The notes below the pieces were generated by a model that searched no databases, was not told the DNA's origin, and saw only the letters and a list, made by a program, of their open reading frames with translations. A stretch of DNA of 64,000 bases from Schmidtea nova. Lineage: Eukaryota. The position numbers and the translations under genes were made by a program. The DNA lies in the NCBI GenBank assembly GCA_044892505.1, contig CM097883.1:182094001-182158000 (forward strand), read 5' to 3'. Numbering within the stretch: the stretch's first letter is position 1; each line of letters starts with the position of its first letter. This document shows, piece by piece, positions 38,761 to 64,000 of this stretch.

Positions 38761-39255
38761 AACTTAATCTATCTCTTATAAATATTCGTTAAAATTCTTT
38801 TGGTTATTAAAATAAAAATTCACAAATACATTATTAATTAATAAATAAATACTTAATGATTTATTGGATATTCAACGCAAATGACTATTGTTGGGCCAGC
38901 CAAATAGAGAAAAAAAATGAAATAAAAGTAGATTAATTAAAACAAAAAAGAGAAAAATAAGGTAAAAAGGAGAATATTTATTTATTAAAAGAAAGGAATA
39001 ATATAGTAAAAATATAGAATAACTAAGTACAAGCTATAAATAAAAATAAATGAATTTATAGATATTAACGGGCCCAGGAGACATCTAAAAACAAATAAAA
39101 TACAAATAATAATAATTAAAACCAAATAAAAGTACTTGTTATTGAATAATTGTTTTTGAAACCCGGACCTCCAAGGAAGAATACAATCTAAAAAATAAAA
39201 ATTAATTAGAATCAAAAACAATAATTAAAACCCACCATGAAATCGGCCAAATCCG

Positions 39256-39299
39256 ATTGGTCAGTCTAGATCAGACTGATCAGTATAAATACTGATCAG
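39256..39299 (+). promoter_or_regulatory. Putative LTR promoter: inverted CCAAT (ATTGG) plus TATAAATA box
   Basis: The same arrangement lies ~370-395 bp from the LTR start in all three copies (TATA at 27397, 35710 on minus, 39284). Confidence 0.7.
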
Positions 39300-40226
39300 A
39301 CTTTGGATAAAACAGACTTAATACCTAATCTTACAACGTCAGTTGAGAGTGAAAAATTTAGCTCACTAATCAAATAGACTTTGAATTCTAGACGAACCGA
39401 TCGAAGCAAACCCAGACGAATTAGGTATTTTGGTTTCTGTATTATTTTATTTATGAGTGTGTCATTTGCTTTGTCATTTATCTATTGATCTAATTATTTA
39501 TGTGTTTATGCATTCATGTGTTGAAATTTGTTATATGAATTAAACGTTATTGTGATTAGACTCAACATTAAAATATATAATGATCATATTAATTTTGCGC
39601 CGTTGGGAGCTTTAGGTTCCCAAGGTGTCCGTCCGTGGCGTGGTGCTCGAGGGCTCCACACACGGTAAAGTAATAAATAGTAAAGCACAATTTTATTAGT
39701 AGTGGTTGAGACTTGCACATGGGACACCCAACAAATCCGGGAAATTATTTTCTGATCATTTTAGCTACAGAGGGGACGAGAATTTTTTGATAAAGCTTAA
39801 AGATATGAAAGAAGTTGTTAACCGGGAGGAGGCACAATTTTTCACCCTCACCATAACGCAGCTGTTTAATAAACGTCTAATAAACCTTAGGAAAATTATG
39901 TCGACCGCGTTTGGTACAAAAGAGCGTTTTTCGAATAAGCTAGGGATACATGACGGGAGAGAGCTTCCGTTTTAAGTTACCAATATTTTGAAACTCCAAG
40001 CAGACAAATCACCATTTTTTCGTCTATCAAATTGATCATAAACAGATAAAGCTAAGTAGATACGAGAGTAATGCATATTGTAACAAACAACAGTTTTTTC
40101 TTGATTTCAGCTAAGGTCTAAGGGGAAGGCAAATAATAAAGGAATCACGATGAGAGATAACATTTACTATGATTAATTATTGATGTAAATTGTAACTATT
40201 ATAAAATTCAGCATCGTTTTGGAATC

Positions 40227-40703
40227 ATGGCTAAGCATAGATACACTATCAAAAAACGACAAGAACGAGCCCGAGTTAGCCCATTAAAGCCGGCTCCTTT
40301 CGAGATTTTACAGCAAATCCACCAAAAGATGTGGGCATGGCGCCGAGAGCTCGAAACCGCCTGTCCATTTACAGTATGGGACCATCCACGGCACCACGTA
40401 TGGTACCGGGGATGCGCTAGTTGGCCAATCATTCCAGACGAGGAATACGAATCATGGCACGCCGCCTGGTTCATCATGATGTTGGACAAAGGTGGATTCC
40501 CGAGATGTGTCATTTATTGGGGGTTCATTCCAGCCTCTACCTTCAAGGAATTGGGGTTCAAGTTCAATACAGCCATCCGACCCCTCCGAGAAGCTGAGAG
40601 AATCCGTTTCCAGCAGGCCTCGTCCCATAACACAGGAATTCATACAAATTTGCAGATCCGCTCGGTATTTTCGTATCGAGGAAAAATGACCGAGGATGAA
40701 TAG
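40227..40703 (+). CDS. LTR-encoded ORF A (158 aa), unknown function
   Basis: Intact ORF with protein-level conservation (W.WRR, CPF.VW, IYWG.IP, LG) to homologs in both solo LTRs. Confidence 0.8.
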   Translation: MAKHRYTIKKRQERARVSPLKPAPFEILQQIHQKMWAWRRELETACPFTVWDHPRHHVWYRGCASWPIIPDEEYESWHAAWFIMMLDKGGFPRCVIYWGFIPASTFKELGFKFNTAIRPLREAERIRFQQASSHNTGIHTNLQIRSVFSYRGKMTEDE

Positions 40704-41019
40704 CTGAATCAATGGCCGCCTGTTTTTAAATTAAATAAATGTTTTAAAGAATTCTGAAATGTTCGTTTTGTTAATAGTGTTGTCATGTAGATTTAGTATT
40801 GTAGTTGTTATAGTCATTAGGAAATTCATTTATTAATATAAAATTAGTTCAATAAACCTTTTGAGTCTTCAATAATTAGATAGTTAAATAATTTTGCAAA
40901 GAAATCAATAATTAAAAACATTAGTATACATCTCGTTTAATAATAATAATAGTTGTTTAAATAAAATAACATTGTTGATAGGCCCTCCAGTGAATTTATC
41001 GTTATAATCTTCAGACAAC

Positions 41020-41604
41020 ATGCCGACTTCAGAAAATTCGAAGAAAATCATGGGACAAATTCAAGAGAGAAAGCTGAGGGACCAGCAGCGACAGATCAAG
41101 CGACTCACGGTCGCCAATGATGAATTGAAAGCGAAGTGGTTCTCGCCCGAACAGATGAAGGACCAGTCGAAAAAACTCGAGCGAGTGCAGGAAGCATTGG
41201 CTACAACCAAATTGGAACTGGATGCCGTCCAGCGAGAACTCCGAAATTGCCTGAACGCAGTAACAAGAAGTTACATCGACTCCGAATTGCGAGCGCTAAT
41301 TCGGCCGATCACGGCTCAGCGCTGGATACAATGCACTCACCAAGATGTCGCTTGCGGGACGGAAGAGGAAATCATCATGGCACCCACTCTTACAACGGAA
41401 GATTTGCCTATTTTTCCCAGCGATCCCCCGAGAACAATAGCGTCAGCACCGGCCACAAACCCACAGCTTCGAAAGCATCGAATGGGATCGCGACAGCGTC
41501 GTCGTCGCCGAGAATTTGCAAGGCGCCTGGACGAACAAATCCACCACCTGAACTCCTTAACCGAAGCAGAGTTAATCCAGGAGATTAGCCTGGAGTTTGA
41601 ATAG
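41020..41604 (+). CDS. LTR-encoded ORF B (194 aa): coiled coil plus Arg-rich motif
   Basis: Intact ORF, homologous to the ORFs at 29278 and 34096; contains RKHRMGSRQRRRRREFARR. Confidence 0.82.
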   Translation: MPTSENSKKIMGQIQERKLRDQQRQIKRLTVANDELKAKWFSPEQMKDQSKKLERVQEALATTKLELDAVQRELRNCLNAVTRSYIDSELRALIRPITAQRWIQCTHQDVACGTEEEIIMAPTLTTEDLPIFPSDPPRTIASAPATNPQLRKHRMGSRQRRRRREFARRLDEQIHHLNSLTEAELIQEISLEFE

Positions 41605-42137
41605 GAAAATCTCCATGTAACATAACAACCTGTCTTTATTATTTTAATAAAGTATTACTGTGTAAATTTTTTCTCTCATCGTGTGATTTCACTAAATAAA
41701 ATAAGACTACATAAGTAATTCGTAGAACTAAAAATCGCATCGTAAAACCTACACCGACCGTTACTTAGCAGCGAGAGTTTTCGTAGGCTTGTAGAACAGC
41801 GAGGGAGAGCGTCATTGGGAAAAGCGTGTGATAGATCATAAGGATATGTAGTATAAAATTCAGTAGGAAACGAACATCCATAGAATGTAAATGCGTAAGA
41901 CCTTCTATCGGCAGCAAGAACCCGAGGGAAGATAAATGGGGAGTAGTTTTGGCGACAAAGCTCACCTGCCCATCATTTTTCCACCACCGTATGCAGTACC
42001 AACTTGACTAGTAGGGAATAGTCAAGGGCATACGCGTGTAGTAGTCATGTTATGTATGGTTATGGGCGCGGAATCCCTAGTATGATTAATTGTTTATTTG
42101 TATTACTTAAAACCCACCCATAATCCCAGCATAAATT

Positions 42138-42156
42138 TGGGGGCTCAGCCGGGATC
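42138..42156 (+). promoter_or_regulatory. Primer-binding site, tRNA-Pro-like
   Basis: TGGGGGCTCAGCCGGGATC, 6 nt after the LTR end. It is complementary to a tRNA 3' end GATCCCGGCTGAGCCC-CCA and close to the canonical Pro PBS TGGGGGCTCGTCCGGGAT. Confidence 0.8.
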
Positions 42157-42484
42157 AACTTTGTTTTATGCGGAAAAGGTGAACCCAACGACAACAGAGA
42201 AATTTAAAATCAGAAGTTTGTGAGAAAAATAGTAACCGAATAAGTAATCGAGACGAAAGCGAGCTACGTGGAAATAGATCGTTATAAACAGAGAATCAAA
42301 TAAACTGAGTAAATAAAAACAACAACACAATGAAATAGATAAATTAAATAAATGCAATTATAAATAACAGGTCGGGACGACAATTTACCGAAACACGGGG
42401 GGAGGCTATAAAACTGTCAGAAACGAAACACAGTACTACTTTTCGAATAATATTAACACAGTGTTTAAATAAATTATCTAGGAA

Positions 42485-42946
42485 ATGGAGGAAAAACTGA
42501 AAGAAATCGAGGAATTTTTCAACACCAAGAACGATACATTTGAGACAGTCTGCGAAAAAATAACCCGAATAAGAGCATCCGAATATGAGGAACCTACGAC
42601 ACAAACTGAGGAAACAACTGAGTTAATAAAAATCATAGAGAAAGTAAATAAACTCGATATAAATACGCGATATAAATGGTACAAAGCACGATTAGAGGAT
42701 GCCGAGTTGAATATCAGATGCCGACATATAGAACAGCAGTTAAGCCTAACATATAACCGATGGACGTCGCAAGGGGTCGAGGCAGCAAAACAATATAAAC
42801 AATGTTACATATGCGAAAACAGTGAAATCCAAATAATGTTTTTACCATGTGGACATTTTCGATTCTGTAAAAACTGTGCGAATAAGTGTGATGAGTGCCC
42901 CATGTGCAATTTCTCTGTAGCTGATAAAATTGTAGTTTATTTATAA
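42485..42946 (+). CDS. Accessory protein with a C-terminal IAP/Mdm2-type C3HC4 RING (153 aa)
   Basis: CYICENSEIQIMFLPCGHFRFCKNCANKCDECPMCNFSVADKIVVYL* at the extreme C-terminus; no BIR domain seen. Confidence 0.88.
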   Translation: MEEKLKEIEEFFNTKNDTFETVCEKITRIRASEYEEPTTQTEETTELIKIIEKVNKLDINTRYKWYKARLEDAELNIRCRHIEQQLSLTYNRWTSQGVEAAKQYKQCYICENSEIQIMFLPCGHFRFCKNCANKCDECPMCNFSVADKIVVYL

Positions 42947-43633: not shown

Positions 43634-43639
43634 TTGAGG

Positions 43640-44062: not shown

Positions 44063-44612
44063 GTGATCGTCGACGATAATGAGAATAGTGCGCACCGATA
44101 ATAGAGAAATGCGAGTAAAGCTGATTATGCGACCTAAAATAATGCATGCAAGTAGAATCGAGAAATAGGAGCTGACCGGAAAGACCGGCAGAATTAATAA
44201 TTAGAGGCTAGCAGAGAGAAAGATAAAGAGATGAAAAAATAATAATCGAGTCAAATGACTCAGGGAATTAGAGCGTTCGAACGACAAATAAATTGGGAGA
44301 CCGCGGGAAAAATAATCGATGTATTTTAATAACCGATAGATAATTGTTATGACTAAATAGATAATTGTGACTAGTATATAGATAATTTAAATAGACTTAA
44401 ATAAAGGGGAATCTGGGAATGGGGAAAAATAATAGAAACCCAGTAATGAGAAGTCCCGTAAAAAGGGAATAAAAGCGCAACGATAACAATAGAGTATCGT
44501 TGAAGTGACATTTGTATTTTAGATAAATCAATCAAACCAAACCAATCAACTAAGGAAGAAAAGAATCGGAACACGATAAGACAGGAAAATTGAGTATACA
44601 AAAGTAATCCCG

Positions 44613-47489
44613 TTGAGAAAAGGAGAAAAGAGTGTCATAATAAAACCAGCAGAAAAGAATAAAGCTACCAAGAATAATAATCAGAAAGGCCCAAAAGGAA
44701 GTAAAGCAAGGCAGATAATAATACAAAAGTCGATTATCGAAAACGATAAATTATCAGTAACAAGCAACAGTTCAAGCAACAAAGAAAATCAAGCAGAACC
44801 CGAGAGAAACCCAATAAGTGAAATAGAAGTCGACAAAACCAACAACGATTATATAGAAGAAATAGAAGACGAAGTAGAACAAGAAACAGAAAGTGACGAT
44901 ACCGATAACGATAGTAAAGCATCAGATAACGAATCAGCAAAGGAAACTGAGATCGACCGAAATTCAAGTGACGAACCTAACAGTGAACTAGAAACAAGAG
45001 GAAACGAAAGTAAAATAACTACAGACAGCGGAATCGAAATGAGTGAACCAAGAGAAGAGATAAAAGACAAATTTTCCGGAGAACCGTTTAATGGAGATGC
45101 GAGTAAATTAGAAACTTTCTTAAAGGAATTTGGCATATTCGTGGAAGTATGCAAGTGGAAACCAGAAACAACTGTAAGCAGAATTCAGCTATATTTGAAA
45201 GATAGCGCATTAGATCTATATTTGGAAGCAAAGAATGGAACTAATCCACCTACAAGTTGGTCAGCGATAAAGGACTTTTTCCAACAAACCTTTGGAATAA
45301 ATAAAGTATTGAATGAGGCATTCACGGAATTCTCAATGAGGAAACAAAAGATAAATGAATCGAATGCGGTATATGCAAGCGAATTGAAAAAGTTAGCAAA
45401 GTTGATCTTTAATCAAGACAGCCCAATAAATGAGGAGTTAATGGCAGCTATCTTTGTGGGAGGATTAAGAAGACCCGACATAAGAGCGCAAGTTGGATGT
45501 CAAGGTTGTAAAACCATCGACCAAGCACTAGAAACAGCTAATAGATTTGAACTACACATGATAGGAAATGACGGTAGAATCTATTTAGCTATGGATACAG
45601 CACAAAACGAACAAGAAGTGAACCTGAATAACCACATTCCAAATTCACAACAATTAAACCGACCACCACCGCAACGAAGGAATGAAGGGAATAAAGTATC
45701 AAATTACGGAAATCAAAACAATTACAACCCCCAAGGACCAACGAAACAATGCAAAACATGTGGGAAATTGGGACATTGGCAACAAGAATGTTATCAGAAC
45801 TTGAATTGTGGAAAATGTGGAGTAAAAGGGCATTCAGAGAGCAGATGTTACACAATAACCTGTTTTAATTGTGGACGACCTGGACACCTATCAAGAAATT
45901 GCGGACAAAGAAGCAATCAACGAGGAAGCTGGCAGAATACCGGAAACCGACAAAACTATGGAAACCAACCAACTGGTGGAAACCGACAGAATTATGGAAA
46001 TCAGCCAAATAATGGAAACCAGCCGGAATACGGAAACCAACCAAATAGTAATAATAATAACCAAAATAAAAATACCACTAAAGAGATACATTTAATGCAA
46101 GAGGTTCAAAGATTGACGGAGCTGATAAACAATACAACCAGAGGAAATCCGCAAACAGGTCAACAACAAATCAATATGATGAGAAAAATAGAAAGCGAAA
46201 ACGAACGATTGAATCGGGAAAGTCAAGCACGACATGCTCAGGAATGGGCAAGAATACAAAGAGAAGAGGAACAAAAACAGCAAGAAAGAGAACGACAACC
46301 TCTAAGAATTAATATGATGAGAGCAACCAATCAAACAAATACCCACGAGAAAGAGACTGTACCAGAAATAAATCCAACAAACCCGAATCCAACCAACAAC
46401 GAAGGCCGAAAAGAGATAATACAAGAAGATGAAGAAGCAGAAAAAGAAACAGAAAAGGAAGTAGAAAAAGAAGGGAACCAAGAAGAGAAAAGGAAACTCG
46501 GGAAAAGAGGAATGATGGTAATTTTGCCAAACAAGCACGTGTTTCGATTCCAATATAACATAAAAGAAGAAGTAGAAATATTGTTCAATAAAGTGAATGA
46601 AATGGCTCCAGGAGTAACGAAACTGCCCAGAGAAGCATTCCTAAAAATAGAAGGTGCACCAGAAGTAAAATTGAAACTAACGGATACATGGGAAAACCTG
46701 GGAGTAGTAGAGACAAAAAGAAATGTGATGGTAATCAAGGAAATAGAACCAGAAGGAATTCCATCGCCAGTGCGTCACGAAACACGAATCAGTCGAATAT
46801 TTAAAGGGAAAATGATACGAAGACGGTTGGGAGAAATAGACGAGTTAGAACGAAAAATGAGAAAGGTCGGAGTAGTAGACGACAAGAGTGAATCAACACA
46901 AAAAGCTATTAAAAGTGAAACAAGACCAACGGAAAATACACCAAGTGAAATCAACCAAATAAAACACATTAACATGTTGAGAGGCCAGGCAAAGAAATTC
47001 TCAGATGACGAAGAGGATAGTGACGTCAGTAGTCTAGCCGGAGATATGCTAAACGAACCGGAAATTGAAGACAAAAAGATAGAAGTAGTAAAGACACCAG
47101 AAACTATTCAAGTAAAAGAGGACGAGATCCAGAAATTATTAGATAACGCGCTAGAAGTAATATATAATGAGGAATTCATCGACAAGAAACACTACCGGAA
47201 ATTCATGAGAGCAATATTACAAATGAACTATAAAGAGTGGTTACCAGGCCGGGAAGTAGAAACACTAAGCCAATACGTAGGAAAATTATTAAAAGAACCA
47301 CTCCATGAATATATAATACTAATAGAGATAAAAACATGTTTGCCAAGGATTTGGATCAAAACTCCACTCACGGAAGATATTTATCAATGGGTGGAAGACA
47401 GATTAGGGAGTTCATATAAAAACAAATTCCTCTATTCACAGAATGGACTAGTGAAGAAAAGGACGCATTTGATAGAAACAGGCATATGA
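44613..47489 (+). CDS. Gag part of the giant polyprotein: acidic N-terminal region, capsid-like domain, three CCHC knuckles, N/Q-rich and charged regions, start of a ubiquitin-like domain
   Basis: The frame is open from 44580 and the first in-frame ATG is 45039 (MSEPREE..PFNGD..LETFL..F); the true start is uncertain. Knuckles CKTCGKLGHWQQEC, CGKCGVKGHSESRC and CFNCGRPGHLSRNC lie at 45750-45902. Confidence 0.88.
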   Translation: MRKGEKSVIIKPAEKNKATKNNNQKGPKGSKARQIIIQKSIIENDKLSVTSNSSSNKENQAEPERNPISEIEVDKTNNDYIEEIEDEVEQETESDDTDNDSKASDNESAKETEIDRNSSDEPNSELETRGNESKITTDSGIEMSEPREEIKDKFSGEPFNGDASKLETFLKEFGIFVEVCKWKPETTVSRIQLYLKDSALDLYLEAKNGTNPPTSWSAIKDFFQQTFGINKVLNEAFTEFSMRKQKINESNAVYASELKKLAKLIFNQDSPINEELMAAIFVGGLRRPDIRAQVGCQGCKTIDQALETANRFELHMIGNDGRIYLAMDTAQNEQEVNLNNHIPNSQQLNRPPPQRRNEGNKVSNYGNQNNYNPQGPTKQCKTCGKLGHWQQECYQNLNCGKCGVKGHSESRCYTITCFNCGRPGHLSRNCGQRSNQRGSWQNTGNRQNYGNQPTGGNRQNYGNQPNNGNQPEYGNQPNSNNNNQNKNTTKEIHLMQEVQRLTELINNTTRGNPQTGQQQINMMRKIESENERLNRESQARHAQEWARIQREEEQKQQERERQPLRINMMRATNQTNTHEKETVPEINPTNPNPTNNEGRKEIIQEDEEAEKETEKEVEKEGNQEEKRKLGKRGMMVILPNKHVFRFQYNIKEEVEILFNKVNEMAPGVTKLPREAFLKIEGAPEVKLKLTDTWENLGVVETKRNVMVIKEIEPEGIPSPVRHETRISRIFKGKMIRRRLGEIDELERKMRKVGVVDDKSESTQKAIKSETRPTENTPSEINQIKHINMLRGQAKKFSDDEEDSDVSSLAGDMLNEPEIEDKKIEVVKTPETIQVKEDEIQKLLDNALEVIYNEEFIDKKHYRKFMRAILQMNYKEWLPGREVETLSQYVGKLLKEPLHEYIILIEIKTCLPRIWIKTPLTEDIYQWVEDRLGSSYKNKFLYSQNGLVKKRTHLIETGI

Positions 47490-50400
47490 CCAGGAGAGGT
47501 GACAACACTATCGATATGCGATGATAAGAGAGAAGAGAACCTACAAGAAGTAGCAAAGGAAGCAAATATGTGTTTCGAGAAGAAGATAAAACCACGGTTA
47601 GAATATGAGAAAGGACGAATCTTACGAGGAAATCTAAATTCCATGATAGAACAAATCATCCCACAAATCAAAAAACATAGAAAGGAGTTAATGAGAAGCG
47701 AATACGAAAAGTTGAAACGATGTATCGAATGCATACGTGACACAAGTCACACGAGATGGTCACAGATCTCATACGGAAAAGTAATTGCAAAAATGGGAAA
47801 AGCAATGTTCAGACAAGGGAAAATAACAGATCTGAAAATTGCAGTAGAGTTACCTAATGAGGATACCAAAGAAATTGAAGTGGTAGCAGATTGTACCATA
47901 AAAGAATTAGTAAATGTCATCAACGAGACACTATTACAAAGAGAACCAGAAGAAGAATGGGAAGATGACATAATCATGAAATACAACGAACATGTATTAT
48001 GGGATCACGATGAAAGACGGCTATATAAAATTGGTATATGGGATAATCACCAAACCATCCACGTTATCAGAATGGACGATACACCAAGAGAAACTGCTAA
48101 AGATGAGAAAAGAGAACGGGAACGAAAAAAAGAAGTTGTGCATAAATTACAACAAATAGTAGACATTTATCGAAATTGGCGGATTTGGCCAGAATGGGAA
48201 GACGTATTAGAAGAACTCAATCTCAACAGACGATTACCAACACCTGTAGAAAAACAATGGAACGAACGAGGAAAATGTTGGGAACCAAAAGCAGGCGAAT
48301 ACGAAGAGGAATACGGAATAGGCATAGAAGACGATCACAAACCGGAAACCGGAAGAGTCTGTATGGTAACAAGAAAAGCCATGCCAGCAGATTTAGACGG
48401 ACCAGAAACGACAACCATGTGGTTGGAAAGAGAAAAACAAAAAACGGAAGAATTTGTCGAAATATTAAAAACCAATGCGCACGGCAAGAGAAAAGTAGTA
48501 AAAGGTCTCGCAGATTTTTTCGTAGTTAATGGAGAAGACATAACATGCTTGCGTAAAGTAGCAAAAGCAATCGCCGAATACAAAAGAGTTAACGAGTGGT
48601 GTCCAGAACAATTGGATCACGTAATTAAAAAATGGAGAAACCAAGAATTCTCGCAGGAATCGCCACAGAAAGTACACCTAAGAATAGTATATCCGAACCA
48701 GGAAAAGGAAGAGTTTTGGGTAGGGATAGCGGAGAAAGTTCGAGACATTAAAAAGAAATTGAGATATGAACCACCATTCCATTTACAACACCAAGGACGA
48801 TCATTAGATAACAGCTTGGAAATTGGAATAACGCCAGCGCAATTAGATATCGCAAATACATTGACAGTGGCAGCAATAGCAGGCCAACCATTGAAATTGA
48901 AAGAGGAAAAGAAACCAAAGGGAAGTATGAGTACGCCGAGCCCAATGAAATCGGTAATGACTCCAGGAACAAGCTCAGAACAAGCTAGAACAACACCAAG
49001 AGATACAAGAGAAAGAACACCACCAGAACCATACGATGTAGACGAAATTTTTACAGATAGCGATGATATGTTAGAGGAGTTAATAGAGCTAACAAAAGAG
49101 AAAGATGATAATATTTTCGAAAGAATTCAAGAATTACCAACAGCAATACCGGTAACCAACACCGAAGATGAAGTTGAACAAGAAATAATCATCGAAGAAG
49201 TTAATGAAATAGCAGAAGAGGAAGCAAGGAGGGCAAATGTAGAAAATGTACAATTCACACAAGAAATGGAAAGATGGTTAGAAGAAAGAGCCAATGAACC
49301 AAGAGACGTTACAGAAGAAACTGGACGAGAAACAAGATTAGTAGAAACGGGCACGACAATGGATAAACGACCTAGAGGTAGACCCAAGATGGATCCAGCA
49401 AATGTAGTTATAAAATCAAGAGAGGAAAAAAGACGGGATCAATGGGATTTGTGTCTAAAGAAACTAAATAAAATAGCCGAAACGAAAGAAAAAGAAACAA
49501 CACAAACATACCAAGGCGAGGAATGGATATCAAAGATGTTAATGGAAATACTGGCAATAATCGATCCGGAATTAAAGAAATGGTGGAGAATAAACGAAAT
49601 AAGCGAAAGGGCGAAATCACTGCATAGCGCCATCGCACCAATCCTACCAGAACTAATAAAAGAGAAGACAAGGTCAAACCACCTAGATTGGCAAGGAACC
49701 ACGATGTTGATAAAGAAGTTAACGGAAGGAGCAGAGACGGATAACAAATATTTAATAGCTATAGCATACACCATCTACAATCTGCTGACACTGAGTAGAG
49801 GTCGACTGAAACCTACAGCACTCGAAAGACATATAAAGAATACAGCCAAAATTATAGAGAAAGAAATAGAACCGTACATCATCAGTAAAGGAGGATGGGA
49901 AACATTCACAAAAACGAACCAAAAGAAAAACCAAGCCAAAAATATGAAAAAGAAATTCGAAGAGATATTGGGAGAATTGGAAAAGGAAAAGTCGGGAACA
50001 GGAAACGGGAAATCATCACTAAACCTGAGTTCTATCATTATGATGATGTTAATATGGATGATTAGTACTGACGGAGCAACAGCATTTGAAGTATTCGATT
50101 GTGATCAAATGGCATTAGGTGAGAAATATTCACTACGAGGGACAGAACAATGTAAGGACGCAACCCCAACGGAGTTAAAAACATTAAAAAAGAGACAATT
50201 ATACCACGTATATCAGGAAGCTGAACTGATAAGAACAATGGTCAGGGAATGCAAAGTTTATAAAACCAGATTTGCTTTTTATTGTGGACACCGCCATTAT
50301 TCAGCAATCGTGATGCCAGGAACGGAAAGAGAATCGGTAATGCTGCAAGGAGAAGACTGTGAAAAATTATTTAAACATGGAGAAGTAGAGACTAGAGATA

Positions 50401-53400
50401 GAGTAAAGATAAGAGGAAAAACGGGAGTGATATTGCAACAAACATATTATGTAGCAGGAGCTATTACGGGAGGAGAAGGGTACTGCCAAGGAGCAACTTA
50501 TCCAATATTCGGAGTAGCAGCAACAAACCTAGTGGTAATAGATACGTATACAGTGGAACTAAAAACGTACGAGGCATTCTTCGATCCAACGACGGGAGAA
50601 ATGAAAACTCTACCTATGTGCAAAATCGAGTCAAACACTTGTCAGACTGGTATGTCAACCCTAACCTACCAGATACGAGGAAAGGAATGTCAACTACAAC
50701 TGTTAAAGGAAGCAGAATTCGATGAGATACAAGGGAAAACCTTCCAAGAGGAAGAAGAAGACGAGGCAGCAAGAGGAAAAATACTTCAAGACACAGTACG
50801 GGGAGAGAAAAAGATTGAAACCCGAACACAAGAAAAACAAATTAAAATGAGAAATACACCAACGGTACTAATTACCTCAGATGCAGATATCGGAATGAGG
50901 TTTGTAAAAGGAAAAACAGCCTTGAAATGCGGAGTAGCTATGTTGGAAACCAACTACCCCGGCATTTTTGTATCAAAACAAGAAGTACCTAGTGCGAAAC
51001 GCAAAGTGCACACGAACGATGTTAAATTACACCTTTACATGAACAATAAAATGGATTTTCTGTTCCATAGAGGACAAGCGTCACTACAAAAAGTGTATTA
51101 CGATTTAATTAACAACGATTGCATATTAAATAGGGAAATATTAAAGACAAAACTAGCGGTAGCAATCACAAACCCGGATAGTGCAATGCCATTATTACCA
51201 TTAAGAGAAGGTCATTTTGGAAGGGTAGTCGGAGAGGTCATGTACGTATACATATGTAAAAAGACAAATGCGAAGGTAGCGACAATGACAAAACTACAAC
51301 CAGGTCAGTGTACTAACGAACTAGAAATCGAATATAAAGGGAAAGTAAGATATGTACAACCAGTGACAAGAATCATAAATCCAATAAGCTTCGAACCAAA
51401 TCCTTTCAATTGCAGCAACGCATATGGACCACTATACCAAAAACCAGACGGAAATTGGGTTATGTTTCCGTCAAGAACAGAGGTACCAGCACCAAGGGAA
51501 TTTGAATTGATGCAACTATCAAAAGGACGAAAATTTAAAGACGTAGACGTAAGCAATATGGGATTCTATAACGCAAAGGATTTAGAAGCAGCAAGACAAA
51601 ACATACTATTTCCGGCAAGACGAGAAGCGGTGTTATCCAGTATTGTAACAATAACAGGAGGAACAAATTACCAAGGTGGACCAAATTACGAATTATTATT
51701 GTCACCAGCCCACTTTAAGAAGGCAACGGAAAACATGATGAAAGCGATGTGGGGAAGATTTTTAATATTTGGACAAATGATGGCAGGAATACTTGGTGTT
51801 ATACTAATTATACAAATAATACGGGTAATAATAACGCAAATGTTAGCCTGTTTTGACATCTATAAAAGAGAAAAGAAAGTAAATTGGAAATTGGTGGTAG
51901 GATTCTTACCATTTCTGGCTAAAACAATGGTATTACACGGTCATTCGAAAGATATTCACCGAATAAAGAGACTCCTAAAAATACTGGCAAAAATGAAAGG
52001 AACCGATGAAGAGGTGGGACGAAAGTTTAAAAAGATAATGAATAACGAGCAAGCAAGACAACAACTAAAGAAAGAGAGAAAAGGACTATGGGAAAGAATG
52101 AAAGGGTACAGAACCCAAGACGATTCCAGTGACGACGATGATGATGATAACGAAGGAGGTCAAGTATTTAAAAATCAAGTACCACAGTATGTCGAAAAGA
52201 ATCCAGCGGAAATGTGGAAATGTTACGCACCCCCACCGACCATGTACCAAGAACCAACACCAGGGATGAGACAAAATACAATGCAAATGATGCCGATGAC
52301 AAACATATATCCTATGATACCAGAAGACTATAGAACGAGACGGTGCAGAAGCGTAGATCCGCAAGGAGACTCACATACAATTGCAGTAATGTCATCAAAC
52401 ACCGGTCCAGTATTAACTACAACAATCGAAATTAACGGAAGGGAAATAGAAGCGATGATCGATACAGGAGCAAATATCTCAGCAATAGATATAAAATGGA
52501 TACCACAAGAACAAAGACGGGATATTGAGAGAACCAACGTTCACGTAATAGCATGCAGTAAAGAAGTAGTAGAAGTTGCCGGAAGATGGTGGGTAAAGAT
52601 AAAACATCAAAACACGGAAATCGAAACGTACGTAGCAGTAATACCAGCACTGAGCGTACCATGCATTATAGGTACGGATCTGATGCCAGCATTATTTAAA
52701 GAAATAGTTATTGACCTCGGAACAATGAGATTAAAGGATAGGACAGGACAGATATGCGCAATAGAAGCAAAAGTAACAAGTTCGAAACAAATAATCGTAC
52801 CAGCACGGAGAGAGAAAATATGTTTCGTAAAAATAGATCCTACAATAGAAGGTGACATGATCTTTGAACCCAGTAAAAGATTTGAAAAGAGAAAGTCGTT
52901 GCCAATGGCAAGGGGATTAGTGAGTGCGAATGACAACGGAGAAATCCCGATAAATGTAGTAAATTTCGATGAGGAGGATAAAATAATTTATGAAAATGAA
53001 AGATTAGGTAAACTAACTCCAATGATAGATATCGAAATACCAATAAAAGAAGGAGTAAAAGAGGAGGAACCCACTTGGAACATTAATAGCCAACTATTAA
53101 ATGAGGACCAAAAGAAACAGCTAGAAAGATTACTGATGGAATATAAAGACATATTCGCAGCATCCGATTTAGATTTAGGGACATGCGACGTCACACTACA
53201 TACGATTCCACTAACAGACGAAACGCCGATTGCGTTAAGACCATACAAGTTAGCTGAAGCGCAAAAATCAGTAGCAGAAGCAGAAGTACAGAAAATGCTA
53301 GACGCAGAAGTAATTGAACCAAGCTGCTCACCGTGGCAGTTCCCAGTTGTAATGGTGAAAAAGAAAGACGGAACACAACGATTTTGTATTGATTATCGGA

Positions 53401-56400
53401 GATTAAATGCAGTTACAAAAAGGGATACATACCCATTACCGGACATCAACGAGATGTTATTGACATTACAAGGAGCGGCATATTTTACATCATTGGATTT
53501 GAAAAGCGGATACTGGCAAATTAAAATGAAAGAGGAAGACAAAGAGAAAACTGCTTTCACTATCGGAAGAGACTTGTACCAATTTAGGAAAATGCCATTC
53601 GGACTAACCAATGCGCCAGCATCATTTCAAAGATGTATGAATTTCGTTACCCACGGCATAAAACAATGCATGGTTTACATTGACGACCTACTGATCTACT
53701 CAAGCACATTTGAACAACACATCCAAGATATCAGAGATGTATTTGTTAGATTGAGACAATGGAAACTCAAGCTCAAACCATCGAAATGCGATTGGGCAAA
53801 AGAGAAAGTGACATTCTTAGGACATATTGTGTCCGCAAAAGGAAAGGAACCAGATCCCAGAAACATTGATAAAGTAAAAGAATGTCCAGTACCAAAGACG
53901 ATAACGCAGATCCAAGAATTTCTCGGATTATGCGGTTACTATAGAAAATTCATAAAGGATTACGCAGGAATTGCAAAACCAATCCAGGAGCTAGTAAAGA
54001 AAGACGTATCGTTCATATGGGGAAGCGAACAACAAACAGCCTTCGAAACATTACGAGATAAGTTAATAACTGCACCAATATTGGTTCACCCGGATTTTAA
54101 AAAGCCATTCTTACTCGCAACCGACGCAAGTGGATATGCAGCAGGAGCAGTGTTAGGACAATATGATGACGAGGGAAAAGAGCGGGTAATCGGATATTAT
54201 AGCAGAACATTCAAGAAACACGAGAAGAATTATTCAGTAACGGAAAGAGAAGCATTGGCAATAATATTAGCAATAAAACACTTTAAATATCTATTATGGG
54301 GACACATTATATGCATAACCACAGACCATCAACCACTTGTATGGCTAGGACAACATAAGGAAACATCCAGCAGATTAATGAGATGGGCGATGCAATTACA
54401 AGAATATTCACCAGATATAAAATTCAAATCAGGAAAAGCGAATGCCAACGCAGATTGTATGTCAAGATTAACGTTTCCAGAACTAACAGACCCAGAAGTG
54501 CAAAGAATATGCATAATGATAGCAGAGGACTTGGATTTCAGTGAGTTAAAGAAAGATCAGCAAGAGGATAAAGAACTAAAACCCATCATAGAATTTCTAA
54601 GCTCACGAAATATGGATGTATTCGAAGACAATGCGGAGTTAAAAGAACACATGAGGAAATACCAACACCGATACACAATAGAAAAAGGATGGTTGTTAAT
54701 ACAAGATGGAGAAAAACGATTAATGTGTCTGCCAAGTAATAGACGAAAAGAGATAATAACTCAATACCATGACGGAAAGCTAGGAGGACACATGTCCTCT
54801 AAGAAAACATTAGATCGTATGAGACAGAAATATTATTGGCCAACAATGGACGAAGACGTAAAGGAATGGATAAAGAACTGTTTAACTTGTGCCACAAGAA
54901 AGGATAGTGGGAAGAAATGGAAAAATCCCTTAAAACCCATGCCAATACCAGCGGAACCAATGACTACCATTGCGATGGATGTAATAGGACCATTGCCAGA
55001 AAGTTTAAACGGGAATCAATATATATTGGTAATAACGGATTATTTGACTAAATTCCCTGAAGCATTTGCGATGCCGGATCAAAAAGCAAAGACGGTAGCA
55101 AGAATTTTAGTAGAGGAAATATGTTGTCGATACGGAACCCCGAAACAAATACTAACAGATCAAGGAACAAATTTTATGAGCGAAATACTAGATGAAGTAA
55201 CAAATTACTTCAGAATAGCCAAATTACGAACGTCACCATATCATCCGCAAACCAACGGGCAAACGGAAAGATTTAACGGCACATTGATTCGAATGTTATC
55301 CAATTATGTAAGCAAACACCAAACAGATTGGGATGAATACGTAAAGCTATGTCTAATGGCATACCGAATGTCGATACACGCAGCAACAAAATTGAGTCCA
55401 TTTCAATTAATGTATGGAAGGGAATGCAATATGCCAATAGATCTTGAATATCAACCACCTTTGTCTCAATATATGGAGGAAGATGATTACGTCACCAAAT
55501 TCAAAGAACGAATGCAAGAGATATGGAAGACAGCAGAACTAAACATAAAGTTTTATCAAGAAAGTTACAAGGACCTACACGATCAAAAGAAAAATGTTAA
55601 AACAAATGATCTTAAACCCGGAGATTGGGTAATGATAGAAACCCCAGAAATAATACCAGGAACCGTTAAAAAACTACAAAGACCAGGAAAAGGCCCTTAC
55701 GAAGTTATATACAAAAAGGAAAACAATGTGAAGGTAAAACTTGTTAATCGACCATTGATACGACCAATATACGTTAATACATGCAGATGTAAAAAAGTAC
55801 CAAAGACAATAACCACAGCGCCAGAAGAACGAATAATAACCAGATCCCAGACAGCCAGAATGAATATGCTCAGAGCAACCAATGAAAGTACCGAAGCAGA
55901 GAACAATCAACGAGGAAAAAGAAACAAGGAAATTGTACTAAAAGCCAGAGAAATAATGGGAAAATGGCATGTCAGAGACGATATATTAAGAGATATTCAG
56001 TCGATAATTAGTGATTACGCAAGGGGACTACCAACAAAACCAGTCATTTCAGAACTACTGGAAAAGATTCCAGAAATACTTTCACTAGAAGACATAGGAG
56101 GACAACCAGCATTACATAACGCCATAAAATGGGGAGAAGTAGAGAGAGTAAAAGAATTTCTAAAAATCGCTAAGGAAACAAACCAACACCTTGGTTTTGG
56201 GAATAGCGAACAAGAAACACCATTAATGGTAGCAGCCATCTACAAATCGGATAAAGCAATAATAGACCTTTTGATAAATGCCGATTTCAACTGGACGGAA
56301 CGCGATAGAGAAAACAAAACAGTCTTGAATCACGCAATATGGAGCTCAAATCAGATAATGCTCAAACAAATAATCGAGAAGGCCACTTGGGAAATAGACG

Positions 56401-59400
56401 AACTGATCAAAGGTGATATAATCAAGGAGGCAATAAAAATCGGTAACTGCAAAACAATACGCAAGCTAATAAAATGGAAAAGATCCGAAAATGATACATG
56501 GGTGTTAAATATAAACGAGGTATACAGTGAAGGGCAAAACACGTTATTACAATTCCTATTAAAATTCGTTTGTGACCAGAAAGCACTGTTAACGTTATTA
56601 GACAGAAGAAATATCATAATTTCCAAAAACAAAGAGGAGTGTAAATTCGAAAGTGAAAAAGAAGCATTATTCAGGAAAATTAGGGAATGGTGTGCAAAAT
56701 CGCTAACCAAGACGATAACTTACAAAGATATATCCAATTTTCAAGATAAATACAAAACGGTGGAGGAAGAGTATGACAAACTAATAGACATATTAAACCA
56801 CCCCGAAAAATGCAAACAATTCCTATGTCAAAAGGAAAGAGAAAGCAAAAGGAAAGTTACACCACTTTTCAGCGCAGAGGTACCATATCAAGAAAGGTTA
56901 GATGCGATACAGGACAAAGCAAAAGAACTATTACCAGAATTCGAAAATTCTAAACATACACTGGAGATACTCGGATCAATTGTGGAAAAGGTACACGCAT
57001 ATGCGGAAGGAACTTACAATGAAAACGATATGATGATCATAAAAAGAGAAATGCCAGTGACTTTCTTATTAACAAAGAATGGAGTATTGCCAATACATAG
57101 AGCCTTACGAGCAGGAAAAAATAGGAGGGTAGTCGAAATTGCACGGTTGATGCAAGATTGCGGAAGTGACATGAACATGAAAGATAAAAAGGGAGACACC
57201 CTCATGATATTTGCAGCAAGAGCGAACACAAAAACCCGAGTGTTACAGGAACTGTACGAAGTAGGTGCAGGACTCATGGGAAGAACTAACAAAGACAGCT
57301 CAATACTAGACGTAGCGTTGTTAACGTACAATTGGGAGGTGATAAATTTTATAAAAACAATCACAAATCAGGAGGAAATAGAATACCTTACAAGGAGAGT
57401 TAAAAAAGCTAGCGTACATTCCATGATGCATAACGCTGAACTAACTGAAGTAATACTCAATTGGATGAACCCAAACACCAATGAACCAGCATTCAGGATC
57501 AACGAGTGCATGGAACAAGGCCAGAATTTATATATAAAGTGTGCATTAATAATAAACAAATGGCCAAACATAATAGACATCTTCATGAGAAGAAAAGATT
57601 TACGATTCACAAACAACCCAAAGGAAACAGAACGTACGGACAAATGGAAAGAACTAATGAAAACGTACCTTAATAATTGGATAAAAGCCAAGAAAGAGAT
57701 TCTAGATTGTAAATTAACCGATAAGGAAATACCTAAGCAGGCAGTAACACAAGAATATGAAGCAAGTATACTCACAACCATAACGTATGAAAAAATGATA
57801 GAAGCAATTAATGTCGAGGACGACATTTTCAACGACCAAAGGGGAGGCGACAATACAGGAAACGACGACGATAGTACTCGAGAAAATCCAGAGGATCATG
57901 AGTTACTAGATAAAGAGGACAGTGAAGAGAAAGGAAGGGACACAGAGAAAAATGATAAGAAAAATGAATTTGGGAAACAAAGAAACAACAACTATAAAAA
58001 TAAAAACGAAGTAAAAAGAACAGGCTACAAACAAACAATAAACCCATTCTTTAAACCAGAACTATTATTACTAACGATAATCATGACCTTAATTAGTCCC
58101 ACTCAAGGAATGATATGTGAAGAAAGAGCGACAATACAAATTGGAAACGCAAAAGGAATCGAACGAGTATGTTGGTCAAAAAAGGACAAAATCTCGGGAC
58201 AAAATAGTCCAATGGATTGCAGGATCTCAGAATACGAACAAGAAATCATAGAGATCGATGACCTAGAGCTAGATACTTGGTACAGAATGTGCACCGTTCG
58301 GAAACCAAAGGATCCGAGATCACATAAGACAATTGCATGTGCAAATTACCTAACACCCAAAGTAACCATAACAGTACAGCAGTCATCCAAAGGAGACTAT
58401 GTCGTAGGAAAGTGTGGAAGAACAGAGACACAAGGAACAAAAAACAAGAAACCTCAGACAATAGACAGACGAACAACGCCAACTATACAAATTACCATAG
58501 ACAGGCCCGAAGTAAGAGTAACCACAAATGAAACTGAAAGAGTGACCTACCAAACAGAATTACTATGTTTAGCACTCATATTAACAATGTTAAAACGGTT
58601 AGAAGAAGGGATAGACATTGACACAATGGCAGTAACAGAGATGAACGACACCCAAAACACCAACCCAAAGTGTTGGGCCAGAAGCAACGAAGAAATTGGC
58701 GTAAGCGAAATAAAGACGAGTCGGAAAAGGAAAACAAATAAAGTAACCAAGATATCAGAAGTAAAAGCAGACAGGACGTATGAACTATGTTTACTAGAAA
58801 AAGAAAGACACAAGAAAGGAACGACAATTTGTAAAACATTTCAACCTGGGGAAACAATAAAGTTCATACGACGAGGAAGAAGAAATAAACGCACCAAACG
58901 GAGAACAACTATAATGTTAGAGTTAACCGGAATAGAACCGGACGTCAAAGGCGTATGCTGGAAGAAGCAGGAAAAGAAAACAAACCAGAATACACCGCCG
59001 CAATGTCGAACAAACAGAGGAACAACCACAATACAGATAGAAGGGTTAGAAAGTAATCAAACGTACGAAATATGCCTGATCAGGAAGAGCGACAAAATAA
59101 CAGTAAATGAACTGGAATGCAAAATATATAAAACACCCACCGGAACAAGAATTGGAAAGACAACGCGAAAAAGCAGAAGACAACGGAACAAAGGAAAAAC
59201 GAGGTATACCACTACTTTTAAACCTAATGGACAACAGAAAAACCAAGAAATACAAATAAAAACCGAAAAGAATACTACAGCAACTCTTATACTATGGAGA
59301 ATAGACAATAAAACGTTAGAAATATGTTGGGCAGTAGTCCAGGAACAAAAAGAAAGACAGCCACGATACTGCGAAAACGTAAAAGGAAAAGAAGAAATGA

Positions 59401-60002
59401 GTATCAAAAATCTGAAATTTAATAGAGAATACGAGATATGTGCGGTAGAAAAGACGGACATATTAGGAAATCAGCAGGAAAAATGCGAAACGTACTACAC
59501 ACCGGTAAACTCAACGTCCAAAGGGAAAGTGAGAAAACTCGAATTTAAAGAATTAAGTCAGACAACGAAACAAATGGACGCGGAACAAATAGTAATAGAC
59601 CCTTACGCAAGATGGACGCCGGAAGAAGTAATTAAAGAAGTTAAAAGAAAACAACAAGAACGAGAACAACTACTAAATAAACTAAAGGGACAATATGGAC
59701 CAATGATTAACCAGAGTGAAATTACGAAGATGGACGTAAACAAACAAGTTAGAGAACTAATTGGTCTAGGAATACTAGCAGCAACTATTCCAGTAATAAC
59801 AGTATTATTAATAATATGGATATATGATGTATTCAACAAGAAACCAATAACACATTGGCCAGATATAAAGATTATGAACTACAGTATAGAATTACCGGAA
59901 GAAGTACATAAAGAATTCCAAAGGGGGACGAAAGGTAAAGAATTTTGGAGACAAATAGAAGATGAAGAGCGATACGAAGGAAAGACAGTGATGGTGATAT
60001 AG
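47490..60002 (+). CDS. Polyprotein continuing the gag frame: Ubl domains, AT-hook, Bcl-2-like domain, signal peptide + chuvirus-like glycoprotein + TM, PR, RT, RNase H, integrase, ankyrin repeats, signal peptide + 4 FN3-like repeats + TM
   Basis: PR IDTG at 52461; RT LDLKSGYWQ and YIDD at 53676; RH TDAS; IN H-H-C-C, DDE and GPY. Glycoprotein ~50085-51855; BH2-like YIISKGGWETF at 49875-49907; ankyrin-like repeats ~56090-57340. Confidence 0.93.
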   Translation, partial: PGEVTTLSICDDKREENLQEVAKEANMCFEKKIKPRLEYEKGRILRGNLNSMIEQIIPQIKKHRKELMRSEYEKLKRCIECIRDTSHTRWSQISYGKVIAKMGKAMFRQGKITDLKIAVELPNEDTKEIEVVADCTIKELVNVINETLLQREPEEEWEDDIIMKYNEHVLWDHDERRLYKIGIWDNHQTIHVIRMDDTPRETAKDEKRERERKKEVVHKLQQIVDIYRNWRIWPEWEDVLEELNLNRRLPTPVEKQWNERGKCWEPKAGEYEEEYGIGIEDDHKPETGRVCMVTRKAMPADLDGPETTTMWLEREKQKTEEFVEILKTNAHGKRKVVKGLADFFVVNGEDITCLRKVAKAIAEYKRVNEWCPEQLDHVIKKWRNQEFSQESPQKVHLRIVYPNQEKEEFWVGIAEKVRDIKKKLRYEPPFHLQHQGRSLDNSLEIGITPAQLDIANTLTVAAIAGQPLKLKEEKKPKGSMSTPSPMKSVMTPGTSSEQARTTPRDTRERTPPEPYDVDEIFTDSDDMLEELIELTKEKDDNIFERIQELPTAIPVTNTEDEVEQEIIIEEVNEIAEEEARRANVENVQFTQEMERWLEERANEPRDVTEETGRETRLVETGTTMDKRPRGRPKMDPANVVIKSREEKRRDQWDLCLKKLNKIAETKEKETTQTYQGEEWISKMLMEILAIIDPELKKWWRINEISERAKSLHSAIAPILPELIKEKTRSNHLDWQGTTMLIKKLTEGAETDNKYLIAIAYTIYNLLTLSRGRLKPTALERHIKNTAKIIEKEIEPYIISKGGWETFTKTNQKKNQAKNMKKKFEEILGELEKEKSGTGNGKSSLNLSSIIMMMLIWMISTDGATAFEVFDCDQMALGEKYSLRGTEQCKDATPTELKTLKKRQLYHVYQEAELIRTMVRECKVYKTRFAFYCGHRHYSAIVMPGTERESVMLQGEDCEKLFKHGEVETRDRVKIRGKTGVILQQTYYVAGAITGGEGYCQGATYPIFGVAATNLVVIDTYTVELKTYEAFFDPTTGEMKTLPMCKIESNTCQTGMSTLTYQIRGKECQLQLLKEAEFDEIQGKTFQEEEEDEAARGKILQDTVRGEKKIETRTQEKQIKMRNTPTVLITSDADIGMRFVKGKTALKCGVAMLETNYPGIFVSKQEVPSAKRKVHTNDVKLHLYMNNKMDFLFHRGQASLQKVYYDLINNDCILNREILKTKLAVAITNPDSAMPLLPLREGHFGRVVGEVMYVYICKKTNAKVATMTKLQPGQCTNELEIEYKGKVRYVQPVTRIINPISFEPNPFNCSNAYGPLYQKPDGNWVMFPSRTEVPAPREFELMQLSKGRKFKDVDVSNMGFYNAKDLEAARQNILFPARREAVLSSIVTITGGTNYQGGPNYELLLSPAHFKKATENMMKAMWGRFLIFGQMMAGILGVILIIQIIRVIITQMLACFDIYKREKKVNWKLVVGFLPFLAKTMVLHGHSKDIHRIKRLLKILAKMKGTDEEVGRKFKKIMNNEQARQQLKKERKGLWERMKGYRTQDDSSDDDDDDNEGGQVFKNQVPQYVEKNPAEMWKCYAPPPTMYQEPTPGMRQNTMQMMPMTNIYPMIPEDYRTRRCRSVDPQGDSHTIAVMSSNTGPVLTTTIEINGREIEAMIDTGANISAIDIKWIPQEQRRDIERTNVHVIACSKEVVEVAGRWWVKIKHQNTEIETYVAVIPALSVPCIIGTDLMPALFKEIVIDLGTMRLKDRTGQICAIEAKVTSSKQIIVPARREKICFVKIDPTIEGDMIFEPSKRFEKRKSLPMARGLVSANDNGEIPINVVNFDEEDKIIYENERLGKLTPMIDIEIPIKEGVKEEEPTWNINSQLLNEDQKKQLERLLMEYKDIFAASDLDLGTCDVTLHTIPLTDETPIALRPYKLAEAQKSVAEAEVQKMLDAEVIEPSCSPWQFPVVMVKKKDGTQRFCIDYRRLNAVTKRDTYPLPDINEMLLTLQGAAYFTSLDLKSGYWQIKMKEEDKEKTAFTIGRDLYQFRKMPFGLTNAPASFQRCMNFVTHGIKQCMVYIDDLLIYSSTFEQHIQDIRDVFVRLRQWKLKLKPSKCDWAKEKVTFLGHIVSAKGKEPDPRNIDKVKECPVPKTITQIQEFLGLCGYYRKFIKDYAGIAKPIQELVKKDVSFIWGSEQQTAFETLRDKLITAPILVHPDFKKPFLLATDASGYAAGAVLGQYDDEGKERVIGYYSRTFKKHEKNYSVTEREALAIILAIKHFKYLLWGHIICITTDHQPLVWLGQHKETSSRLMRWAMQLQEYSPDIKFKSGKANANADCMSRLTFPELTDPEVQRICIMIAEDLDFSELKKDQQEDKELKPIIEFLSSRNMDVFEDNAELKEHMRKYQHRYTIEKGWLLIQDGEKRLMCLPSNRRKEIITQYHDGKLGGHMSSKKTLDRMRQKYYWPTMDEDVKEWIKNCLTCATRKDSGKKWKNPLKPMPIPAEPMTTIAMDVIGPLPESLNGNQYILVITDYLTKFPEAFAMPDQKAKTVARILVEEICCRYGTPKQILTDQGTNFMSEILDEVTNYFRIAKLRTSPYHPQTNGQTERFNGTLIRMLSNYVSKHQTDWDEYVKLCLMAYRMSIHAATKLSPFQLMYGRECNMPIDLEYQPPLSQYMEEDDYVTKFKERMQEIWKTAELNIKFYQESYKDLHDQKKNVKTNDLKPGDWVMIETPEIIPGTVKKLQRPGKGPYEVIYKKENNVKVKLVNRPLIRPIYVNTCRCKKVPKTITTAPEERIITRSQTARMNMLRATNESTEAENNQRGKRNKEIVLKAREIMGKWHVRDDILRDIQSIISDYARGLPTKPVISELLEKIPEILSLEDIGGQPALHNAIKWGEVERVKEFLKIAKETNQHLGFGNSEQETPLMVAAIYKSDKAIIDLLINADFNWTERDRENKTVLNHAIWSSNQIMLKQIIEKATWEIDELIKGDIIKEAIKIGNCKTIRKLIKWKRSENDTWVLNINEVYSEGQNTLLQFLLKFVCDQKALLTLLDRRNIIISKNKEECKFESEKEALFRKIREWCAKSLTKTITYKDISNFQDKYKTVEEEYDKLIDILNHPEKCKQFLCQKERESKRKVTPLFSAEVPYQERLDAIQDKAKELLPEFENSKHTLEILGSIVEKVHAYAEGTYNENDMMIIKREMPVTFLLTKNGVLPIHRALRAGKNRRVVEIARLMQDCGSDMNMKDKKGDTLMIFAARANTKTRVLQELYEVGAGLMGRTNKDSSILDVALLTYNWEVINFIKTITNQEEIEYLTRRVKKASVHSMMHNAELTEVILNWMNPNTNEPAFRINECMEQGQNLYIKCALIINKWPNIIDIFMRRKDLRFTNNPKETERTDKWKELMKTYLNNWIKAKKEILDCKLTDKEIPKQAVTQEYEASILTTITYEKMIEAINVEDDIFNDQRGGDNTGNDDDSTRENPEDHELLDKEDSEEKGRDTEKNDKKNEFGKQRNNNYKNKNEVKRTGYKQTINPFFKPELLLLTIIMTLISPTQGMICEERATIQIGNAKGIERVCWSKKDKISGQNSPMDCRISEYEQEIIEIDDLELDTWYRMCTVRKPKDPRSHKTIACANYLTPKVTITVQQSSKGDYVVGKCGRTETQGTKNKKPQTIDRRTTPTIQITIDRPEVRVTTNETERVTYQTELLCLALILTMLKRLEEGIDIDTMAVTEMNDTQNTNPKCWARSNEEIGVSEIKTSRKRKTNKVTKISEVKADRTYELCLLEKERHKKGTTICKTFQPGETIKFIRRGRRNKRTKRRTTIMLELTGIEPDVKGVCWKKQEKKTNQNTPPQCRTNRGTTTIQIEGLESNQTYEICLIRKSDKITVNELECKIYKTPTGTRIGKTTRKSRRQRNKGKTRYTTTFKPNGQQKNQEIQIKTEKNTTATLILWRIDNKTLEICWAVVQEQKERQPRYCENVKGKEEMSIKNLKFNREYEICAVEKTDILGNQQEKCETYYTPVNSTSKGKVRKLEFKELSQTTKQMDAEQIVIDPYARWTPEEVIKEVKRKQQEREQLLNKLKGQYGPMINQSEITKMDVNKQVRELIGLGILAATIPVITVLLIIWIYDVFNKKPITHWPDIKIMNYSIELPEEVHKEFQRGTKGKEFWRQIEDEERYEGKTVMVI

Positions 60003-60127
60003 GAGGCGGGATATGACTGTAAATAATAGTGTAAATAACAATGCATTACCGTAATAGTATGGGTATCGATATTATAAAAATATAAAAAGAGAAATCGAGA
60101 AAACGATTAATGTATATAATTTAGAAA

Positions 60128-63991: not shown

Positions 63992-64000
63992 TGTTGGGCC
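63992..64000 (+). repeat. Start of the 3' LTR (truncated by the window)
   Basis: TGTTGGGCC is identical to 38889-38897 and comes after the last internal ORF. Only 9 bp are visible. Confidence 0.7.

Follow-up and report, generated by a model that had tools for sequence, protein, structure and literature searches.

We report that a giant gypsy-type retroelement with long terminal repeats (LTRs) in Schmidtea nova encodes a Bcl-2 homologue within its polyprotein. The element lies in a 64,000-nucleotide stretch of contig CM097883.1 (GCA_044892505.1, positions 182,094,001 to 182,158,000 of the forward strand; hereafter the window, in whose numbering all coordinates are given) and is likely a Burro element as published, matched on the described length and order of parts. 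The Bcl-2-homologous domain sits between Gag and Env and was likely captured once from the host; in the reading we prefer, to which we give a probability of roughly 0.55, it is likely a pro-survival protein tethered to the endoplasmic reticulum (ER) that binds BH3 helices. Its principal features are these:

49512..49925, + strand: Bcl-2-fold domain (helical bundle), in frame within the open reading frame (ORF) 47490-60002
49737..49748, + strand: BH1-equivalent tetrad TDNK (canonical NWGR), placed by a 16-row in-genome alignment
49866..49907, + strand: BH2-like motif IEPYIISKGGWETF, at Pfam Bcl-2 positions 69-100 (E 0.1)
50016..50084, + strand: predicted internal Env signal peptide, h-region about 50031-50069, cleavage between ATA and FEVFDC at 50084/50085
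50085..51833, + strand: Env, a mononegavirus-type fusion glycoprotein (Pfam PF24664, E 1.9e-68)

A sequence-only reading of the window had seen a Bcl-2-like segment inside a retroelement polyprotein, and this is borne out: the domain at 49512..49925 is a Bcl-2 homologue. Judged from profiles, its sequence homology to Bcl-2 proteins is transitive and runs through sister families. Searching the genome with the Pfam Bcl-2 and Env models turned up five further element families (B-F, with open frames of about 3073, 2992, 2993, 3393 and 3401 codons), each with a related domain placed immediately ahead of the Env signal peptide; the reverse transcriptase of three of them is 52-54% identical to that of the window element. 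All five of the sister-family domains tested score on Pfam Bcl-2 (E 2.5e-8 to 6.5e-4), two of them over the cut-off, and a profile of families B-D matches Bcl-xL at E 4e-7. The window domain matches the B-D profile at E 3.9e-5 by hhalign and reaches 31.4 bits against a profile of the five other families only (B-F), on which the best of 1000 shuffles scored 8.7 bits and the reversed sequence 1.9; the match to the sister-family profile is more than chance. In addition, a 16-row profile made of retroelement domains only matched 33 proteins among 1.84 billion, 26 of them with a Pfam Bcl-2 domain and six with Env or a zinc knuckle (two within the 26); P0007, a protein with saposin repeats, was taken as a likely false positive among the 33. 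Identity of the window domain to the cellular Bcl-2 family is 10-17%. By itself the sequence is not recognisable as Bcl-2: Pfam Bcl-2 (PF00452) matches the window domain at only E 0.1 and 13.6 bits, with a cut-off of 31.4 bits, and a single-sequence phmmer search of the PDB found no Bcl-2 match, only designed PPR proteins at E>=0.15. With the single sequence, word-index homologue searches came back empty (3/3) and the ESM Atlas gave no usable match, and a longer piece around the domain matched nothing in Pfam at E<=0.1.

The model of the segment is all-helical and shows a helical bundle around a central hydrophobic helix. Its top structural matches are Bcl-2 proteins that bind BH3 or come from viruses; viral mimics fill most of the top rows of the structural search. 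The sequence-only reading had called for a comparison with the Bcl-2 fold, on which its claim would stand or fall; a Bcl-2 helical bundle is predicted, and the Bcl-2 fold of the window domain is supported by profile homology together with two structure models, so the outcome that would have spoken against that claim, no Bcl-2 bundle, did not occur. Upstream of the bundle the model places a further helix:

49437..49481, + strand: additional N-terminal helix, weak L-x-x-I-A pattern, pLDDT about 44, unpacked in the model

The L-x-x-I-A pattern is common to families A-D after alignment trimming. The model gives no support for this helix as a groove-docked BH3, and its alignment register depended on trimming. 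A joint model of the domain and a Bak-like BH3 exon from the host (L147), in which the alignment was not used, scored 0.00 and is no evidence either way.

Both BH motifs can be located by alignment. A BH2 pattern near the end of the segment had been proposed and stands: IEPYIISKGGWETF has the core IISKGGW, in which GGW is invariant in 16 of 16 in-genome alignment rows. The claim that the BH1 signature NWGR is replaced also held, with a corrected register, for the ungapped alignment gives TDNK, one residue earlier than the proposed DNKY. With NWGR aligned to TDNK, a lysine falls at the arginine position. This tetrad is unchanged in all 30 family-A loci, and a Lys or Arg stands at the arginine position in 11 of the 16 in-genome rows, as it does in all nine retroelement-type database matches listed (20/25 in total); one of those nine has TDSK, and one has kept the glycine. 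According to passages of PMC9027176, the NWGR arginine forms a salt bridge to the BH3 aspartate. The 10 host-type Bcl-2 paralogues aligned from the same genome keep the BH1 glycine in only two rows, so its loss in the elements speaks less strongly against binding than the same loss would in mammals. The genome holds many such host-type paralogues (L033-L041, L044, L052, L054, L058, L061), several of which have a degenerate BH1; an expanded group resembling L038/L040 is among them.

The hydrophobic segment that follows the domain looks like a cleavable internal signal peptide, judging by its sequence features. Its hydropathy peaks at 2.52 over 11 residues and 1.47 over 19, and in all seven subfamilies small residues stand at -3/-1, just before the conserved Env [FY]DC. 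The segment ends 55-70 residues past the start of GGW in 7/7 subfamilies; in this copy it begins some 41-47 residues beyond the G of GGW, with cleavage predicted 65 residues beyond that G. The domain had been described as lying right before the Env signal peptide, and this order is correct, while immediate adjacency to BH2 fails on the 41-47-residue gap. Measured against a C-terminal tail anchor, a hydrophobic segment exists, but with the features of a signal peptide. That the Env signal peptide would nonetheless act as the domain's C-terminal anchor, as the sequence-only reading also suggested, is a reasonable inference from polyprotein topology and from hepatitis C virus (HCV), whose core protein, according to PMC5402940, keeps the envelope signal peptide and remains ER-anchored after signal peptidase cleavage. 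In both cases an upstream protein ends in an envelope signal peptide and would stay at the ER after cleavage; virus and protein are unrelated, and the likeness is an analogy of topology only. The same source reports that such an anchor peptide can be cut again, releasing the protein. Anchoring of this kind would place the domain at the ER rather than at mitochondria, possibly transiently, and would serve Gag too.

The position before the Env signal peptide is constant in 7/7 subfamilies, and the Gag-domain-Env placement recurs in all six of the database polyproteins listed beyond the domain whose sequence extends to Env. A tree was built from the C-terminal half (79 columns, five near-duplicate alignment rows dropped beforehand); in it a branch with support 96/93 separates 11 element domains from 10 host-type paralogues, and branches are long; the element domains likely stem from one capture of a host gene, as far as these sequences can tell. 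For the domain, the ratio of non-synonymous to synonymous substitution rates (dN/dS) between subfamilies A1 and A2 is 0.05, inside the range of 0.03-0.15 seen over the region as a whole; comparing families C and D gives 0.30 for the domain and 0.09 for Env. The domain is under purifying selection: it is maintained, and not unusually constrained.

On the preferred reading, the internal signal peptide would insert into the ER and signal peptidase would cut off Env, leaving the upstream piece from Gag to Bcl-2 in the cytosol, held by the signal peptide as HCV core is. The element's protease would then trim the Bcl-2 piece from Gag, and the domain, through its kept basic residue, would bind the BH3 helices of Bak/Bok-type or BH3-only proteins of the host and so delay the death of the cell producing the element. 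Anti-apoptotic activity is likely, and we count the RING, TRAF and ankyrin cargo of the same element in favour of a pro-survival role. Passages of PMC13465017 report, second-hand, that the Burro1 inhibitor of apoptosis protein (IAP; BIR-RING) protects planarian stem cells from apoptosis. Should the domain prove active, the retroelement would have two separate means of countering cell death, a point of interest for host-transposon mutualism in regeneration. A bolder form of this idea, which we entertain only tentatively, is that one ancient Bcl-2 capture is shared by all Burro-type endogenous retroviruses with the Env signal peptide as tail anchor, and that the domain, with Trp and Gly lost and the salt-bridge Lys/Arg kept, is a working ER-anchored BH3 sink, a retroviral Bcl-2 encoded within a polyprotein, that from hundreds of germline copies makes planarian stem cells less prone to die, together with the reported Burro IAP.

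Several observations weigh against the preferred reading. The canonical NWGR signature is absent, with Trp and Gly gone and the basic residue kept. The glycine is missing in 16/16 in-genome rows and in eight of nine outside matches, the tryptophan in 15/16 rows, and in families E and F the basic residue is gone as well; passages of PMC9027176 state that BH1 Gly and Arg both count for BH3 binding. The sole row with Trp, in family C, reflects a single-copy CGG>TGG change (1/29 loci), and we accordingly rejected the suggestion that family C retains NWDR. The short h-region (19-residue hydropathy 1.47) could be clipped by signal peptide peptidase, and an ER anchor is not Bak's site of action. Finally, the fold alone cannot separate pro-survival from pro-death or non-apoptotic roles.

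Among the competing explanations, that of a BH2-like motif arisen by chance in some unrelated helical stretch, which could appeal to the poor direct Pfam score and the missing direct PDB match, is already largely refuted and retains next to no chance in view of the sister-family scores over shuffles, the Bcl-xL match, the structure models and the matches of the retroelement-only profile. Rather unlikely, in our estimate, is a Bcl-2 fold that has no working BH3 groove and modulates signalling (NF-kB/TRAF, autophagy or ER calcium) in the manner of the poxvirus A46/A52/K7-type proteins. The loss of BH1 Trp and Gly across families, the ER topology, and a TRAF, ankyrin and RING cargo that points to signalling and ubiquitin pathways would all fit such a modulator; the basic BH1 residue kept in 20 of 25 domains and the BH3-binding and viral Bcl-2 proteins among the closest structures do not, and Gly loss may be normal for the lineage, given the host paralogues. 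The bundle could instead be a structural, matrix-like part of the particle that, with the signal peptide, brings Gag to the ER membrane for budding and has no effect on cell death. Its fixed place between Gag and the Env signal peptide, in subfamilies and database polyproteins alike, and a precursor that is anchored whatever the domain does suit this idea, which we nevertheless consider distinctly improbable: GGW and the basic BH1 residue are conserved at about 20% overall identity, needlessly for a mere spacer. Very little weight goes to a pro-death, membrane-permeabilising Bak/Bax-like module, or a BH3 decoy formed by the extra N-terminal helix, that would aid release or kill neighbours. The Gly-Asp pair of a BH3 is missing from that helix, whose pLDDT is low and which is less pronounced in families E and F; hundreds of germline copies would argue against toxicity.

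The sequence-only reading implied that a Bcl-2 domain in such a polyprotein was new, which is not the case. The section of PMC6431247 on Burro elements (Arkhipova & Yushenova 2019, citing Grohme 2018 and Jurka 2007 for the giant Burro/GYPSM1 gypsy elements) describes in planarian elements a BCL2-like motif that is preceded by a ubiquitin/SUMO-like domain, with Env lying in frame between the BCL2 motif and the protease. The presence of the domain, already in print, is thus no discovery. In the literature searched, which did not include the primary papers Grohme 2018 and Dev Cell 2026 (these may cover the domain), we found no functional or structural study of it. Our contribution is to back the fold at the level of structure, to place the BH1 register and the conserved basic residue in it, to give evidence that the domain was captured once, and to propose the signal peptide as anchor. 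The domain differs from cellular Bcl-2 proteins (Bfl-1/A1, Bcl-xL, Bak, Bok) in lacking the BH1 Trp and Gly, in being embedded in a polyprotein, and in having as anchor a predicted cleavable signal peptide far from BH2. Like the viral mimics of DNA viruses (BHRF1, BALF1, KsBcl-2, E1B-19K, A179L, ORFV125) it is a divergent Bcl-2 fold taken up by a genetic parasite, although those are stand-alone genes whereas this domain would be cut from a retroelement polyprotein. A degenerate BH1 is tolerated in ORFV125 and DPV022, according to passages of PMC9027176 and PMC11209288; ORFV125, with SPGR, binds Puma at much lower affinity (PMC9027176).

The element spans 28,346 bp (28.3 kb) with LTRs of 3243 bp each, and its polyprotein runs in one frame in the order Gag-[Bcl-2]-Env-protease-reverse transcriptase-RNase H-integrase. 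Its remaining features are:

38889..42131, + strand: 5' LTR, 3243 bp, TG...CA, target-site duplication CTAT (LTR-LTR comparison)
42138..42156, + strand: putative primer-binding site, after the 5' LTR
42482..42946, + strand: accessory ORF with C-terminal RING finger (IAP-like end; Pfam zf-C3HC4_3, E 2.3e-11)
44580..47489, + strand: Gag part, 969 aa, ending at an in-frame stop at 47487-47489 (zf-CCHC, E 3.8e-8)
47490..60002, + strand: polyprotein remainder, 4170 aa, with ubiquitin-like and Bcl-2-like domains, Env, protease, reverse transcriptase, RNase H, integrase, ankyrin repeats and a second membrane protein
49365..49388, + strand: basic RPRGRPK motif, similar in family B
52299..55799, + strand: protease (DTG at 52461), reverse transcriptase (YIDD at 53676), RNase H and integrase (Pfam RVP, RVT_1, RT_RNaseH, Integrase_H2C2, rve)
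56112..56381, + strand: ankyrin repeats (Pfam Ank_2, E 7.3e-14)
58062..59816, + strand: second predicted type I membrane protein at the polyprotein end, with signal peptide, four FN3-like repeats and transmembrane segment
60549..61958, + strand: TRAF-like accessory ORF, zf-TRAF and MATH (Pfam MATH_2, E 5.3e-21)
63992..64000, + strand: start of the 3' LTR, which continues to base 3234 of the next stretch

Gag and the downstream ORF together make 969+1+4170 = 5140 codons, with one in-frame stop in this copy. The length is that of ORF1 in the Dugesia tigrina Burro-like element of PMC6431247, given there as 5,140 aa, with TRAF on a separate ORF. As in the Burro section of that source, the element is about 28 kb with LTRs and has one huge ORF holding Gag, a ubiquitin-like domain, a BCL2-like domain before Env, Env between gag and pol, the pol enzymes in the same order, and ankyrin repeats. 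Ankyrin, TRAF and RING are clear, the ubiquitin-like domain is a weak Pfam match (E 0.035), and no BIR match was found by Pfam in the RING ORF, unlike the reported Burro1 B-IAP. The TRAF ORF lies downstream of the polyprotein here and upstream in PMC6431247, which describes two CCHC knuckles where we find two by Pfam and three by eye. That section does not mention the second membrane protein, whose four repeats follow a CW ... L-x-x-x-x-x-Y-x-I/L/M-C, fibronectin type III-like (FN3) pattern; the Atlas ranks FN3 clusters first (score 0.87, a lead only), and Pfam gave no FN3 match for it. Env ends in a transmembrane segment at 51777-51833 by hydropathy. The RPRGRPK motif, presumably like an AT-hook or nuclear localization signal, was not seen in similar form in families C-F.

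The two LTRs are identical (3234 bp of the 3' copy in the next stretch and 9 bp at the window end), start with TG, end with CA and are flanked by CTAT, so the insertion is recent. The putative primer-binding site has 573 exact matches in the genome (control, 0) and presumably resembles a tRNA-Pro site; ARAGORN found no tRNA at any of the three such loci examined. A genome search with the window element gave 984 candidates, of which 150 were scored; by our count 24 of the 150 have the 5140-codon open frame, and among the matches scored a second subfamily, at 86-89% identity, has open frames that reach about 5690 codons. The region is also covered by contigs from three runs of unspecified kind; none of their seven listed joints has GT..AG ends, and they are uninformative.

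A recurring I/M-N-M-M/L-R-like motif in Gag and after integrase (46086, 46170, 46308, 46968, 48057, 48357, 55860), of which four are also seen in subfamily A2, possibly marks cleavage sites of the element's protease. It is a lead only, since the motif was designed after seeing the sequence and is absent from families B and C; the candidate site nearest the Bcl-2 domain, likewise a lead, lies about 360 codons upstream.

Three further accessory ORFs lie between the polyprotein and the 3' LTR (60125-60484, 62048-63133 and 63206-63787, all +); none has a convincing Pfam match, and the last shows two hydrophobic stretches by eye. Tandem 30/31-bp repeats occupy 43419-43635 in the 5' untranslated region. 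Each LTR encodes two ORFs of 176 and 198 aa that belong to no known family (40173-40703 and 41008-41604, +), with relatives at 31-34% identity at 29251-29754 (+), 33632-34105 (-) and 34267-34758 (-), stretches that are probably LTRs of other Burro families. Just upstream of the 5' LTR is a bZIP-like host exon (36859-37599, +), and the window also holds a pol fragment of another LTR element, RNase H/integrase-like by eye (24204-25610, +). Elsewhere in the genome, ORFs for protein-primed type B DNA polymerases stand just upstream of Gag on the same strand in one copy of family C (L099:3081-4379) and one of family D (L101:2-2590, a region that also has endonuclease VII); they may be cargo or neighbouring Polinton-like insertions.
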